A stretch of DNA of 12,958 nucleotides from Armatimonadia bacterium (GCA_039683575.1 JBDKRC010000291.1:1-12958), one strand, 5' to 3'; positions 4,418 to 8,682 are shown, counted from the first letter of the stretch. Notes: generated from the letters alone by a model not told the origin. A program made the numbers and translations.

Positions 4418-5641
4418 ATGCCAAAGTCGCTATTGCCAAGAGGGCCCATGTCCCCTCTTCTGGCTTGCCTGCTGGGCAGCCCAGACGAGCTTCACGAATC
4501 GCTTGCGCTCGCCAGCGACCTGCCGCTGCTCGCCTTGAGGCATGGGGTAGTGACGCTACTTTACCAACAACTGCGCCAGCATGATCTCCTGTCGCGGCTT
4601 CCGGATGATCAGCGCGCGCAACTCAAGTCCCTGCACCTCATGGCCATGGAGCGCCGCCTGCGCCGTCTGGACGCGGCCGCAGAGCTCTCGCAGGCTCTGG
4701 CGCAAGCCCACTTCACCCGCTATCTTCCTCTCAAGGGATGGGCGGTCCTGGCCTCTGGCGGCTCTTCACCGCTCCTGCGGGAGATGATCGACCTCGATCT
4801 TCTGGTCTCGCCTGCGGATGCGCAGGAGGTCTATGATCTCCTGCAGCAAGCCGGCTGCCGGGTGGCTGACATGCCTTGGATCCCAACTCCCTGGGAGTAC
4901 CACCTTCCCCGGCTTGAATTGCGCTCAGTCCCCATTGAGCTCCACTGGCGCCTTTGGCCGCATTCGCCGCTGCAGCCTTTTGCCCTGCCTGACTTTGAGG
5001 CCTTGTACTCGCGGGCCATTGCGGGGCGTCTGGAAGGGCAGAACTTCATGGTGCCCTCGGTTGAGGACCAGTTCCTCATACAGGCGGCGGGGCTGGCCGA
5101 AGACGGGTTCACCACCTGCCTGCGCGGCTGGGCTGACCTGTACTGGCTCCTCCAGCTACTGCCGGCCGACGGTGGCCAGCTTTGGAACCTCGCTGTTGCC
5201 GCCCGGATGCACGGGTACGCGCTGGTCATGCTGTCGCTCCTGCACGAGCTTTTGCAGTGTGACCTTCCCGTCCAATCACATCTGCCGGCGGAACTGCACC
5301 CGATCAGCAACGCTCTTGGCGAGATCGCCTGGCGGCGCCTGTGGATGGCGGACATGAAGCGAGCCTCAACCTGGATGCTGACGGGGATCTACAGGCTGAG
5401 ACATCGCAGGCGTTGGTACGCCAGTAGTTGGGGGAAGGAACTGCCCGAGTGGTTGCAGTCTGAAGTGCGGGGTGGCCCGGCAGGCTGGGCCGTGCTGCAT
5501 GCCGGCGGCGCGGTTGCGGCGGGCCTGAAGGTCGCTGCTCGCCTCGGCCGCCTCGCCGTTGTGCCCTCTGAGCGCCGTGCCGTGCGCGAGGACCTTCGTC
5601 TGGTTCACCTGCTCCACGGCCTCGCTAACAAGGTTGGGTAG
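4418..5641 (+). CDS. Nucleotidyltransferase family protein (NTP_transf_5-like, RiPP-cluster associated)
   Basis: 407 aa. Motifs LALRHGV, LPLKG, REMIDLDLLV (DxD), IELHWRL and WADL, typical of the nucleotidyltransferases found in lasso/RiPP clusters. AGGGA RBS. Confidence 0.85.
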   Translation: MPKSLLPRGPMSPLLACLLGSPDELHESLALASDLPLLALRHGVVTLLYQQLRQHDLLSRLPDDQRAQLKSLHLMAMERRLRRLDAAAELSQALAQAHFTRYLPLKGWAVLASGGSSPLLREMIDLDLLVSPADAQEVYDLLQQAGCRVADMPWIPTPWEYHLPRLELRSVPIELHWRLWPHSPLQPFALPDFEALYSRAIAGRLEGQNFMVPSVEDQFLIQAAGLAEDGFTTCLRGWADLYWLLQLLPADGGQLWNLAVAARMHGYALVMLSLLHELLQCDLPVQSHLPAELHPISNALGEIAWRRLWMADMKRASTWMLTGIYRLRHRRRWYASSWGKELPEWLQSEVRGGPAGWAVLHAGGAVAAGLKVAARLGRLAVVPSERRAVREDLRLVHLLHGLANKVG

Positions 5642-5646
5642 ACTCT

Positions 5647-6030
5647 CTACTTCGTACGCCACCACGCCCTGAGACCTCTCCACCACAGCCGCACCGCGCC
5701 CAGCGCCTTCACTCCCTCCACCACACCGAGAACCCGGTTGACCGGCACGGGTGCATCCGGTCTGTCCGCCGTGTCCCCCCAGGTCTGCATGAACCTCTGC
5801 TTCTCCTGCCACCACAGCCGCACCAGGCGGTGGCAGGTCAGGTTGCCATCGGCGTCCTCGTACAGCACCACGTCGCCCCGCGCGACCTGCTGTACGGGAT
5901 GCACCCGGACCTCGGCCCCGTCGGGTATCGTGCCACCCATGCTCAGCCCCGTAGCGAGGAAGGTCACCGGCCGCCCGTCGGCCAGCAGCCCGCGCACGAG
6001 TTCGCGGTACTCCTCCGCCGGGATCTTCAT
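5647..6030 (-). CDS. S24/S26-family peptidase, soluble, Ser/His type
   Basis: 127 aa. GLSMGGTI (catalytic Ser box), RGDVVLY, CHRL and TWGD...D boxes of signal-peptidase-like proteins. No transmembrane helix. ATGA overlap with the upstream kinase-like gene at 6027-6030. Confidence 0.85.
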   Translation of the reverse strand: MKIPAEEYRELVRGLLADGRPVTFLATGLSMGGTIPDGAEVRVHPVQQVARGDVVLYEDADGNLTCHRLVRLWWQEKQRFMQTWGDTADRPDAPVPVNRVLGVVEGVKALGAVRLWWRGLRAWWRTK

Positions 6031-6818
6031 AGCAGCGTCTCCAGGGCCGTGACTGCCGTCGCGTCGGGCACGAAGGCGTACTCATAGACTGGAGCGCAGG
6101 CGGCCAGATCCCCGAGCACTTCCATCGTTAGCGGCATGCTGCGCGGGGACCACGAGAAGAAGCGGGTGGTCTGGATCAGCCGCCGGATGGTCTCATTGGT
6201 GTTCAGAGCAGCGAACTCGTTGCGCCGGCCGTGCTTGAGGAAGCATATGACAGCGGGTGGCCCGCCGGCCGTGGCATGGGCGAAGCCGGGCCAGGGACTG
6301 CCGTAGACGCTCAGACCCTCAGGCCCGCGCGCAGTGAAAGGGTACTCATCAGTAACGATCCTGCCGCCGTGTCTCCCGATCAGACGCGCGAGGGTGCTCT
6401 TGCCGCGCTGCTGCTGCCCCAGTAGCAGCACGAGCTTGCCTTTGAGCAAACATAGCGCCCCGTGCAAGAAGGCTCCCTCATGATGCGCCAGGTGCCCCCA
6501 CAGCGCCAGCATCAGCCATGGCCTGCCGTCAAACGGCCTGCGCTGCTCGCGCGGCAATACTACCTCGAAATTCCGGAAGTCCGCAGCCGCGTCGAGGATA
6601 CCCCGCGGGCGCGCAAAGCGCAGCCCCGCCGCGACTTCCTCGACGTGCATATCCGCGCGCGGCAGGCCTCGCAGCGGGTGATGACTGATGTTCAGTGTGA
6701 AATCCGGCTCAATAGGAGGGGGTGTAACAAAGGGGAGTAGATTGCGCGCCAACCGCAGGCCCAAGTGGCCCTGCAGCAGACATGACCGACCGGTGAGAAC
6801 AAGGCCGCAGGTGACCAT
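6027..6818 (-). CDS. HprK-related P-loop kinase-like protein (RiPP-cluster associated)
   Basis: FLHGA, Walker A GQQQRGKST, IVTDE (Walker B-like) and VYGSPWPG. Start reassigned to ATG 6818 because the ORF-track start at 6905 lies inside precursor gene A2. Confidence 0.8.
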   Translation of the reverse strand: MVTCGLVLTGRSCLLQGHLGLRLARNLLPFVTPPPIEPDFTLNISHHPLRGLPRADMHVEEVAAGLRFARPRGILDAAADFRNFEVVLPREQRRPFDGRPWLMLALWGHLAHHEGAFLHGALCLLKGKLVLLLGQQQRGKSTLARLIGRHGGRIVTDEYPFTARGPEGLSVYGSPWPGFAHATAGGPPAVICFLKHGRRNEFAALNTNETIRRLIQTTRFFSWSPRSMPLTMEVLGDLAACAPVYEYAFVPDATAVTALETLL

Positions 6819-6841
6819 ACACGCAGCCGCCTGTTCAGCGT

Positions 6842-6988
6842 CTACCGGGCGCAGCGGGCACTTCCGCAAGTTCCGGACTGCTTGGTGTTTGATGAGGCCC
6901 AGCAAGCCGCCAGGACATCGACCTCGTTCTCCAGCGATACTTCCTCAACCTCGGGCCTATGCCACTGCTTCCGCTGCTTCTCTGCCAT
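6842..6988 (-). CDS. RiPP precursor peptide A2, 48 aa: MAEKQRKQWHRPEVEEVSLENEVDVLAACWASSNTKQSGTCGSARCAR
   Basis: ATG 6988 with AAGGGG RBS, TAG at 6842. WxxP leader motif and three-Cys core. 25/48 identical, ungapped, to the adjacent A1. Confidence 0.9.
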   Translation of the reverse strand: MAEKQRKQWHRPEVEEVSLENEVDVLAACWASSNTKQSGTCGSARCAR

Positions 6989-7065
6989 GGAAATCCCCTT
7001 GTCGGTCCCATGGAGCGTCGGTGAGAGCCCGCTCGCGAGGAAGTGAGGTTCCGCGACGCCCGGGC

Positions 7066-7212
7066 CTAGCTGGCGCAGGCGGAGTGCCCACACATCGGCC
7101 GGCCCTTTGATTGTGATGCTGACCAACAGGCCCGCAGCACGTCCGCTTCATTTTCCAGCGCGATTTCTTCGACTTCCGGCTTCCGCCATTGCTTCTGATC
7201 ATGCTGTGACAT
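7066..7212 (-). CDS. RiPP precursor peptide A1, 48 aa: MSQHDQKQWRKPEVEEIALENEADVLRACWSASQSKGRPMCGHSACAS
   Basis: Manually translated; absent from the ORF track. ATG 7212, TAG 7066. Same length, leader and Cys spacing as A2. Lies directly downstream of the radical SAM gene. Confidence 0.9.
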   Translation of the reverse strand: MSQHDQKQWRKPEVEEIALENEADVLRACWSASQSKGRPMCGHSACAS

Positions 7213-7241
7213 ATAGGTTCACTCAACAGGGTCTACGATGA

Positions 7242-7270
7242 AGGATATACATCCATGCTGCTTCGGTCAA
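7242..7270 (-). promoter_or_regulatory. Putative sigma70-type internal promoter for the precursor genes (TTGACC-N17-TATCCT)
   Basis: -35 TTGACC at 7270-7265, an exact 17-nt spacer, and -10 TATCCT at 7247-7242, in the 85-nt gap between the rSAM stop and the A1 start. Confidence 0.55.
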
Positions 7271-7297
7271 GAGACTGCGTTCGGCGGCTTAGCTTCA

Positions 7298-8371
7298 CTA
7301 GTCGGGCACTGTCTTGTGCAATCCGTACGCGATCGCCCGCAAGTGCCCCAGTTCACACAGAAACGGGGCAGGCGCCCCGGCGTCTTCACCAGCTAACAGC
7401 GCGTGCGCGGGGCAGGTGCGGCAGAGTTGCGGCCAGTTGCAGCCGCGACACCGGTCACTGTGGGCGTCGATGCCCGCCAGCAACTCCGGCAACCGCGCCC
7501 AGCCTTCCTTAACGCTTCCCTTACGCAAGTCGTATCCGGGTTCAGCCAGCATCAAACACGGCCGCAGCATTCCATACGGGTCCACATGGAAGTCGCGTTC
7601 TCCCACGCGGCACCGGAAGATCCGGTGGTCATCCGGCTCAGGCGCCCGGAAATGCTCGAGCAGTCGCCTCCACTCCGCCACTCGCACCGGGTCAGCCAGC
7701 TCCAACTGCAGCACGTCCGCCGGCGTCAGACGCTCCGCCTCAGGGTTGCCTCCGCTCTCGGGCAGACACCCCGTCAGTTCCGCATCCCACTTGAATATAG
7801 CTTGGTAGCGACCAGACTGTGCTCTCAAGGCCGCGAGTTCGTGTACATTGCGTCGCGTGATGACCGTCTTGACCTCAACCTTGACACCGGCGGCGACAAG
7901 CAGGTCCACTCCCGCCAGAACCCGGGCGTGTAGCCCCTCGCGCCCTGTCATTAGCCGGTAGGTCTCCTCGCTGGCGCCATACAGGGTTATCGAGACCTGC
8001 CGCGGCGTCCACTCCGCCAGGAAGGCGACAGTCTCCTCGTCAAGCAGGAAGGCGTTGGTGAAAAGCTCCGGCAGTATGCCGCGCTGGACCGCCGCCAGCC
8101 AAATGCCCCGGAAATCGGGTCTCAGCAGGGGCTCGCCACCAGTCAGCGTCAGGAAGAGCACCCCTTCATCCGCCGCCTGGCCCAGGATCCTGTCCCACTC
8201 CTGCAGCGTCAACTCCGGCCGGGGCGTCGGGCCACCCTCGGGCAGCCGGCAAAAGCAGTGGGCGCATCCGAAGTTGCAGCGGTAGGTCAACTCGGCACTC
8301 ATCGTCAGCGGATGCCGCCTACCGTCAGCCTCCAGGCGCTCAAACAGGTCGTCAACCGTCATGGTCCTCAC
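7298..8371 (-). CDS. Radical SAM/SPASM domain peptide maturase
   Basis: CNFGCAHC (CxxxCxxC), TGGEP and ELFTNA. SPASM cysteines C-x12-G-x4-C and C-x2-C-x5-C-x2-C-x18-C. GTG start overlaps the PqqD stop (GTGA); ATG 8362 is an alternative start. Confidence 0.95.
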   Translation of the reverse strand: MRTMTVDDLFERLEADGRRHPLTMSAELTYRCNFGCAHCFCRLPEGGPTPRPELTLQEWDRILGQAADEGVLFLTLTGGEPLLRPDFRGIWLAAVQRGILPELFTNAFLLDEETVAFLAEWTPRQVSITLYGASEETYRLMTGREGLHARVLAGVDLLVAAGVKVEVKTVITRRNVHELAALRAQSGRYQAIFKWDAELTGCLPESGGNPEAERLTPADVLQLELADPVRVAEWRRLLEHFRAPEPDDHRIFRCRVGERDFHVDPYGMLRPCLMLAEPGYDLRKGSVKEGWARLPELLAGIDAHSDRCRGCNWPQLCRTCPAHALLAGEDAGAPAPFLCELGHLRAIAYGLHKTVPD

Positions 8372-8682
8372 GGCTGAACCACCAGACCGCGTTGGACGAG
8401 ATCATCCAGAAGTTCCTGAACGTCCTTCCGCAGGTCCTCTTCGTCCACCTCATACTCCTCGGCCAGCGCCGCCACCAGGGCGTCCAGGTCTCGGGCCTGC
8501 GCCAGGAGTTCCCACACCGCCTGGGCGGTCTCGTTGAGCAGATAGACCTTCTGCAGGTCCACACCGGTTTGGTGCAGCGGCATCAGAAGGTGCTCTCCAG
8601 CTACCTCCCTCGCGACGACGCCCGCAGCTTGCTTGTATATTATCACTTCAATCGCCCGCCCCTGCCGTGCTCGTGATCTCAT
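8368..8682 (-). CDS. PqqD family protein (stand-alone RiPP recognition element)
   Basis: VVAREVAGEHLLMP, YLLNETAQAVWELL, LAEEYEVD and DVQELLDDLVQRGLV match the PqqD/RRE pattern. Start is ATG 8682 or GTG 8646. Confidence 0.93.
   Translation of the reverse strand: MRSRARQGRAIEVIIYKQAAGVVAREVAGEHLLMPLHQTGVDLQKVYLLNETAQAVWELLAQARDLDALVAALAEEYEVDEEDLRKDVQELLDDLVQRGLVVQP

Follow-up and report, generated by a model that had tools for sequence, protein, structure and literature searches.

A candidate RiPP cluster of a widespread, uncharacterised family in an Armatimonadia bacterium

What kind of peptide, if any, is made by a compact group of seven genes in the genome of an Armatimonadia bacterium? 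The DNA in question, here called the window, is one whole contig of 12,958 nucleotides (nt) (GCA_039683575.1 JBDKRC010000291.1:1-12958) out of a genome of 6.2 Mb, and all coordinates refer to it. Homologous proteins bear names that point to the phylum Armatimonadota. An earlier examination, here called the sequence-only reading, had placed six co-oriented genes of the minus strand and a convergent NTP_transf_5 gene at 4418-8682 and had assigned them to the biosynthesis of a peptide that is synthesised ribosomally and modified after translation (RiPP). All seven are present as placed: the genes of a PqqD-family protein, a radical S-adenosylmethionine (SAM) enzyme, two precursor peptides (A1 and A2), a kinase-like protein and a peptidase, and the nucleotidyltransferase gene that runs towards them. 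The two 4-nt overlaps are there as well; the PqqD gene overlaps the start of the radical SAM gene (8368-8371), and the kinase gene overlaps the peptidase gene (6027-6030). The gene assignments, too, have held up in domain scores, profiles and fold comparisons.

As judged from its protein families, the cluster most likely converts two small Cys-containing peptides into cross-linked, possibly phosphorylated natural products. The obvious relative is SynChlorMet, a bioinformatically defined cassette (NCBIfam TIGR04248-04251 for ScmD, ScmC, ScmE and ScmF; Pfam PF27840 for ScmC), for which we know of no product. We consider it probable that the region is a complete RiPP cluster of a large uncharacterised family, a sibling of SynChlorMet, and works by the steps proposed below. 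This type of RiPP cluster is well defined, widespread and uncharacterised, and the roles of its genes are plausible. If our interpretation is correct, thousands of members make up a RiPP class from which not one product is known; the precursors can now be given a name, and tests of the five enzymes as a group become possible.

A recurrent gene set

Within the phylum, 24 of 401 genomes carry a close homologue of the radical SAM enzyme, and so does one of three others of the same genus. Near it, a PqqD gene is found in 22 of the 24 loci of the phylum, a precursor and a peptidase in 20 each, a kinase-like gene and a nucleotidyltransferase in 17 each; all six parts are together in 11, and several of the incomplete loci end at contig ends. 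The set is not confined to this phylum. Radical SAM enzyme, PqqD, kinase and peptidase are combined in 10 of 15 loci from other phyla, which include Desantisbacteria, Nitrospirota, Acidobacteriota, Myxococcota, Lentisphaerota, Thermodesulfobacteriota and Methanomicrobiales, and a kinase-like gene lies beside the radical SAM gene in 27 of 37 metagenome loci. Such repeated occurrence of one gene set in genomes far apart puts the arrangement beyond chance. The sequence-only reading had staked its case on a co-occurrence of radical SAM homologues with precursors and tailoring genes; it is present in related loci, and the retention of precursors beside the radical SAM gene sustains the RiPP interpretation.

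Gene fusions tie the parts of the cluster together. Radical SAM-kinase fusions of about 650 amino acids (aa), with the kinase domain at the C-terminus, are found in L005-L012, L058, L067 and many metagenome loci (loci by our own numbering; e.g., L011:1848-3797). The peptidase is fused to the nucleotidyltransferase in L057:1-1686 and L060:7993-9657, each a single open reading frame (ORF) of 554-562 aa that matches both profiles. Methanogen-type and related loci (L005-L012, L058, L067, L078-L098) have three radical SAM paralogues, one of them fused to a ScmC/HprK-like domain, and their cores carry 3-4 Cys and a terminal Ser. The idea of a "hybrid pathway", as the sequence-only reading had put it, is not supported: kinase, peptidase and nucleotidyltransferase belong as constant components to an architecture that is old and widespread, the same set is seen in true SynChlorMet cassettes, and the fusions exist.

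Two oddities were met among the loci. The radical SAM homologue of L060 (G043:C189) is split into two ORFs by an in-frame TAG, perhaps as a pseudogene or through an error in sequencing. L015 and L100, contigs of Planctomycetia, show 5-7 tandem radical SAM paralogues of about 340 aa; the other parts of the system are absent there.

From precursor to cross-linked core

The pathway, all steps of which we infer from the protein families, would begin with the translation of A1 (7066-7212, minus strand) and A2 (6842-6988, minus strand) as precursors of 48 aa each. Both were read directly from the sequence, and they match a profile built from small ORFs adjoining radical SAM genes, mostly Ser-ending sequences, with E-values of 5.6e-18 and 2.2e-17, respectively. 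They are 52% identical. The leader of A1 contains W9-R-K-P-E-V, and its core, CWSASQSKGRPMCGHSACAS, has three Cys and a C-terminal Ser; the core of A2, CWASSNTKQSGTCGSARCAR, has three Cys and a C-terminal Arg. A2 starts with the ATG at 6988, preceded by a good ribosome-binding site (AAGGGGA). The whole genome holds one cluster, one kinase-like gene and these two precursors only.

The profile search yielded 46 unique precursor candidates in the loci, with no hit in L049, L053, L057 and L063. An alignment-based database search added 99 further precursors, all annotated "hypothetical" and none with a Pfam domain. The family leader reads [YWF]-x-[KR]-P-x-[ILV]...L-x-P-E-E-x-[VL]-[LM]. The precursor family can now be named by the short form of this leader, [YW]xKPx[IV], a core that starts with Cys or Cys-Lys and holds 2-5 Cys, and a terminal Ser. 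Otherwise the cores are hypervariable, both in their length and in their sequence. Among the 99 database precursors, N, S, G or A precedes the first Cys in 76; Lys follows this Cys at +1 in 64 and at +2 in 31 of them. The window belongs to a small clade (window, L044, L045 and L046; support 100 in a quick tree) whose cores begin with CW(S/A)(A/S)S instead of CK and lack the Cys-Lys pair. A1 and A2 were also tried as StsA-related sactipeptides; with E-values of 0.004 and 0.018 and 15-17 bits against a cut-off of 75, this membership was not accepted.

In the next step, the PqqD-family protein (8368-8682, minus strand; 104 aa), a RiPP recognition element, would bind the leader via W-x-K/R-P-E-V, a motif that resembles those of PqqA and of lasso leaders. 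Its score against PF05402 (72 bits, E 5e-20) exceeds the gathering cut-off of 23.4, and its best NCBIfam matches are two lasso PqqD models, both below cut-off with 42.9 and 39.1 bits. The PqqA model itself gives E-values of 0.23 and 0.096 only, over the W-x-K-P stretch.

The PqqD protein would then present the core to the radical SAM enzyme (7298-8371, minus strand; 357 aa from a GTG start, the database entry beginning 3 codons downstream), which with three [4Fe-4S] sites would cross-link it. By its CX3CX2C motif (C32/C36/C39) and a full seven-Cys SPASM motif (C254-x12-G267-x4-C272; C308-x2-C311-x5-C317-x2-C320; C339), the protein is a radical SAM/SPASM maturase. Across 24 homologues, the residues of both Cys motifs are either invariant or kept in no fewer than 90%. 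PF04055 is matched with 83.9 bits, and the SPASM half falls just under the cut-offs (TIGR04085, 24.5 vs 27; PF13186, 17.2 vs 21.5). Among the models that the sequence-only reading had named for scanning, PF05402 and PF14907 are matched above cut-off, TIGR04085 just under it, and the Scm models are missed by far. The radical SAM enzyme reaches no NCBIfam family; the best match is MftC with 88.9 bits against a cut-off of 265, and PqqE (85.3 bits, cut-off 381), ScmE and ScmF score lower. The closest solved structures by sequence are SkfB and PqqE, at E-values of about 1e-11 over the N-terminal half only. If the proposed pathway is true, A1 and A2 would be the first substrate for a radical SAM clade that lies outside all curated families.

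The cross-link would most likely be a Cys-derived thioether. This is favoured because Cys are the only core residues retained across all clades of the family, the window's clade included. Any other chemistry, be it a C-C or C-O cross-link, an epimerisation or an MftC-like reaction at the C-terminus, appears somewhat unlikely. In its favour, MftC acts on a C-terminal residue; it is the best NCBIfam match of the enzyme and the only one extending past the radical SAM core (residues 17-273). The conserved C-terminal Ser of the family could be the target of the radical SAM enzyme, and the conserved Cys-Lys pair is left unexplained. The MftC score, however, amounts to about a third of its cut-off, and Cys alone are kept in every core, even in the window's clade, which has done without terminal Ser and Cys-Lys pair.

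Kinase-like protein, nucleotidyltransferase and peptidase

The cross-linked core would be tailored further. The kinase-like gene (6027-6818, minus strand; 263 aa; database entry P0121) encodes a P-loop protein of the HprK/PEPCK fold and, judging by its homologues, of the Pfam ScmC family, putatively a peptide Ser kinase; its longest ORF would start at TTG 6905 and overlap A2. The label "HprK-like" given by the sequence-only reading is unreadable from single-sequence scans, which returned nothing usable (Hpr_kinase_C, E 0.1), but is borne out by family profile and fold comparison. A profile of 23 sequences finds HprK/P of L. casei as its best PDB match (E 4.5e-7), with the catalytic His, the Walker A GKS and the DD aligned. 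The AlphaFold2 model, with a predicted local distance difference test score (pLDDT) of 93.6, is closest to PEPCK (Z 12.7) and four HprK/P entries (Z 10.0-10.6; root-mean-square deviation 2.6-3.1 Å over 114-119 residues); the next match falls to Z 6.7, and Foldseek agrees with the HprK/PEPCK fold. H119, G139-K140-(S)-T142, D157 and P175-W176 are invariant among the aligned homologues. The family comprises 2,965 representatives (50%-identity clusters) at E <= 1e-30. PF27840, ScmC by its atlas name, is precomputed on 15 of the 17 non-self homologues (38-46% identity).

This protein would transfer phosphate from ATP to a Ser, which for the majority of the family would be the conserved one at the C-terminus; in the window this would be Ser48 of A1, A2 having no Ser at its end. 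The precedent comes from lasso peptides. According to PMC9266682, the HprK-like kinases PadeK, ThcoK and SyanK have a common His-Lys-Asp-Asp motif and place a phosphate on the side chain of the conserved Ser with which the precursor ends; PsmK likewise phosphorylates the terminal Ser of pseudomycoidin, as described in PMC6993621. In the window kinase H119, K140 and D157 of this motif are present, and the fourth residue is Glu.

The NTP_transf_5 enzyme (4418-5641, plus strand; 407 aa), which is convergent with the peptidase gene, would decorate the phosphate or the Ser, as PsmN does in pseudomycoidin. It matches PF14907, to which PsmN presumably belongs too, with 127.2 bits (cut-off 31.2; E 1e-36). 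K106-G107, R121, D125-x-D127 and D240, including the DxD metal site, are invariant in 13 homologues. The model (pLDDT 75.7) has no PDB match at E <= 0.001 by Foldseek.

Finally, the peptidase (5647-6030, minus strand; 127 aa) would sever the leader immediately ahead of the first Cys, the cut following a small residue (LRA|C, LAA|C). Its profile finds human SEC11C (E 9e-11) and SEC11A (E 9e-10) as best PDB matches, with GSM, HRV and GD aligned. S30-M31, H67-R68 and D86 are invariant in 16 homologues, and D92 is conserved in at least 90%; the catalytic role of Ser, His and Asp in the motifs GxSMxP, HR[ILV] and GD is known from work on Sec11. Single-sequence scores stay under the cut-offs (S24 PF00717, 23.1 vs 23.3; TIGR02228, 34.7 vs 51.85). 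On the strength of the conserved Ser/His/Asp and the SEC11C/SEC11A matches, the putative leader peptidase is to be classified as Sec11/SipW signal-peptidase-like (S26B-like) rather than LexA-type.

Is the terminal Ser really the target of the kinase? The last residue is the sharpest feature of the precursors: it is Ser in 33 and Thr in 4 of the 46 unique locus-derived ones, and in 91 and 5, respectively, of the 99 from the database, against 10.4% Ser at the ends of 10,376 random ORFs taken from these loci. These counts favour the proposed pathway; the following observations weigh against it. The Ser counts are partly circular, the profile having been trained on mostly Ser-ending sequences, yet it is the leader that gives most of the score. 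In the window's clade, only one of seven precursors ends in Ser; the others end in R (A2), C (L044), V (L045), P (L046), L and T (both L068), and P0139, a 96%-identical variant of A1, ends in K. The candidate precursors of true SynChlorMet loci end in Arg. Glu takes the place of the kinase motif's second Asp in the window's clade (TDEY vs SDDR), whereas distant members have Asp there; the kinase of L002 is likewise of the D-E type, yet its precursor retains the terminal Ser. L051 and L059 keep terminal Ser, nucleotidyltransferase and peptidase without any kinase. They represent, together with the truncated L050, a kinase-less sub-type of PqqD, radical SAM enzyme, peptidase and nucleotidyltransferase, with precursors ending in ...TPKLS. 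Because the terminal Ser of the clade is mostly lost, the motif reads TDEY and Ser is retained at kinase-less loci, Ser48 of A1 is to be taken as a candidate target of the kinase in this cluster.

On the same side of the balance are the following points. The radical SAM enzyme has no match to a characterised maturase family, so that the conserved Cys have to carry the thioether by themselves. The best folds of the nucleotidyltransferase model, MenT1 and ANT(2'')-Ia (including 4xje and 5cfs), are weak matches (E ~1e-3). Many of the loci are truncated contigs, and some are duplicates (L001/L069/L072, L004/L076, L011/L092, L086/L087, L093-L095). The transcript evidence belongs on the favourable side, if weakly. 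Two metatranscriptome libraries, both from one sample, yielded contigs over pieces of every cluster gene, A1 included, and the contig over A1 (7007-7180) has the highest contig depth among those placed on the window; the libraries may, of course, contain DNA, and such contigs cannot rank genes. They leave the cluster partly uncovered, which is uninformative either way. We take them as a weak hint that the cluster is expressed.

The ScmC-type protein might also not be a peptide kinase at all. It could be an ATP-dependent partner or scaffold of the radical SAM enzyme, to which it is fused in many loci, or it could phosphorylate internal Ser/Thr for elimination in a lanthionine-like manner; precursors of the window's clade and of true SynChlorMet loci lack a C-terminal Ser and are rich in Ser/Thr beside Cys (CWSAS, CSTTS, CKTGT), and the Glu in the motif fits as well. 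We nevertheless judge this unlikely: the catalytic His, the Walker A Lys and the first Asp show little or no variation, the cluster contains no homologue of a lyase or cyclase, and in the wider family the marked preference for a C-terminal Ser is what the known lasso kinases (PMC9266682) would lead one to expect.

Known relatives and surroundings

How close, then, is the cluster to what has been catalogued? With SynChlorMet it has in common PqqD, a radical SAM/SPASM enzyme, a ScmC-type P-loop protein, an S24/S26-like peptidase and NTP_transf_5 in one operon, and the candidate SynChlorMet leaders, Y-x-E/K-P-x-L/V, are similar. Of 401 genomes in the phylum holding L009, 17 have true ScmC genes, i.e., those above cut-off (132-314 bits). 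Six of eight true SynChlorMet loci show PqqD, two radical SAM genes, ScmC and an S24-like peptidase, and five of these six also a nucleotidyltransferase. This common accessory set, together with the Pfam ScmC domain on the homologues of the kinase-like protein, might make the window a plain member of the cassette, which is very unlikely in view of the model scores. ScmC (TIGR04249) is matched with 12.2 bits (E 0.084) against a cut-off of 125, ScmD (TIGR04248) with 17.3 against 100, and ScmE and ScmF with 75.1 and 57.8 against 400 each. Moreover, the window has one radical SAM enzyme and the cassette two, ScmE and ScmF, whose clades are separated in the quick tree (support 94) from a group comprising the window's clade, the other single-radical-SAM loci and the three methanogen-type paralogues. 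The cores differ as well; those of the SynChlorMet candidates have repeated C[KR]TGT and end in Arg. As the accessory set is the same, yet the single radical SAM enzyme lies outside the ScmE/ScmF clades and the Scm scores are below cut-off, the window is, by sequence, best described as a sibling of SynChlorMet and not as a member. The link that the sequence-only reading had drawn survives in the kinase homologues that carry PF27840.

The precursor of SynChlorMet is, to our knowledge, listed as unidentified. Candidates were seen at L121:9730-9948, L122:5771-6046 and L125:6422-6610; they have the leader EYxEPKLVxL, a core with 4 Cys and the end TGTGR.

The analogy with the tailoring of lasso peptides, which the sequence-only reading had proposed, stands. 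A PqqD-type leader binder is combined with an HprK-like kinase having H, K and D(D/E) in the window's family, and the C-terminal Ser is found in most of the family and in A1. The nucleotidyltransferase has ANT(2'') as its nearest fold. PMC6993621 names PsmN an "uncharacterized NTP transferase" that is required to add a hexose onto the phosphate of phospho-Ser, with ANT(2'') structures 5cfs and 4xje as its only structural relatives by Phyre2; the same two entries are among the best, though weak, folds of the window enzyme. This likeness is drawn from the published descriptions of PadeK and PsmN. In contrast to the clusters of paeninodin and pseudomycoidin, the window has a radical SAM/SPASM enzyme and a Sec11-type peptidase in place of lasso cyclase and B2 protease. 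A lasso peptide cluster in the strict sense was considered and rejected, since neither a cyclase (Asn synthetase-like) nor a B2 protease (transglutaminase-like) is among the scanned ORFs of the contig.

Sactipeptide and ranthipeptide maturases (AlbA, SkfB, StsB, PapB) as well as PqqE and MftC resemble the system in SPASM architecture, dependence on a RiPP recognition element and Cys-containing cores. Unlike in the sactipeptide and ranthipeptide systems, the recognition element of the window is a separate, unfused protein, and kinase, nucleotidyltransferase and S26B peptidase are foreign to them. The scores of the window are far below the cut-offs of these models (AlbA, 46 vs 850; StsB, 58 vs 625; PapB, E 0.13; SkfB likewise).

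A PqqA-like leader, a PqqD protein and a PqqE/MftC-like radical SAM enzyme, on a contig without exporter or immunity gene, may also bring to mind a cofactor made from a peptide, as PQQ and mycofactocin are, instead of a secreted natural product. Membership in these two systems was rejected on the MftC, PqqE and PqqA scores given above. A cofactor is hardly credible anyway: the system is scattered patchily (24 of 401 genomes in the phylum, one of three others of the genus), the cores are hypervariable, two divergent precursors sit in one cluster, and no dependent dehydrogenase is found near it.

The full-text literature searched, with subscription journals and supplements largely outside, contained no paper that joins a radical SAM enzyme with an HprK-type kinase and none that mentions SynChlorMet. 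The excerpts of PMC10288494, PMC7470986, PMC12710340 and PMC10352776 mention no kinase, nucleotidyltransferase or signal peptidase in a radical SAM context. No described product turned up within this same scope, in line with the sequence-only reading; an existing description is possible.

A broader interpretation may tentatively be offered, although we hold it to be rather less likely than not to prove correct. PqqD, the HprK-fold kinase and NTP_transf_5 might constitute a portable module for the tailoring of a C-terminal Ser, common to lasso peptides and a very large radical SAM/SPASM RiPP class with a Sec11-type peptidase, from bacteria to methanogenic archaea and including SynChlorMet. The window would be a derived branch. 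It would have given up the terminal Ser and the Cys-Lys pair and kept the kinase, the new target of which might be, e.g., a Ser of the CWSAS motif, unless the protein has taken up a new role. If true, phosphorylation and decoration of a C-terminal Ser, so far known only from lasso peptides, would be a reusable module, and the window's clade is a natural experiment, in which the kinase was retained after its presumed target residue had been lost.

A promoter-like site, TTGACC-17-TATCCT (7242-7270, minus strand), was detected by a consensus scan inside the operon, 30 nt upstream of A1; with 1 site versus 0.5 expected from shuffles, it is a weak lead. A convincing terminator was not found (2 sites vs 2.7 expected), and RNA folding of the A1-A2 spacer and the A2-kinase junction revealed no unusual structure (z -0.05 and 0.36).

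No transporter, exporter or immunity gene is encoded on the contig. As the flanks contain no transporter, lasso cyclase or B2 protease, we keep the cluster boundaries of the sequence-only reading. The flanking genes encode a superoxide dismutase with a twin-arginine translocation (TAT) signal, a GH42-like protein, HMA, SPFH and NfeD proteins, an amidohydrolase, an epimerase and an alcohol dehydrogenase. The contig itself starts (1-131) with a perfect 7-bp tandem repeat, TCAACGA, in 18.7 copies, which may explain the break in the assembly.

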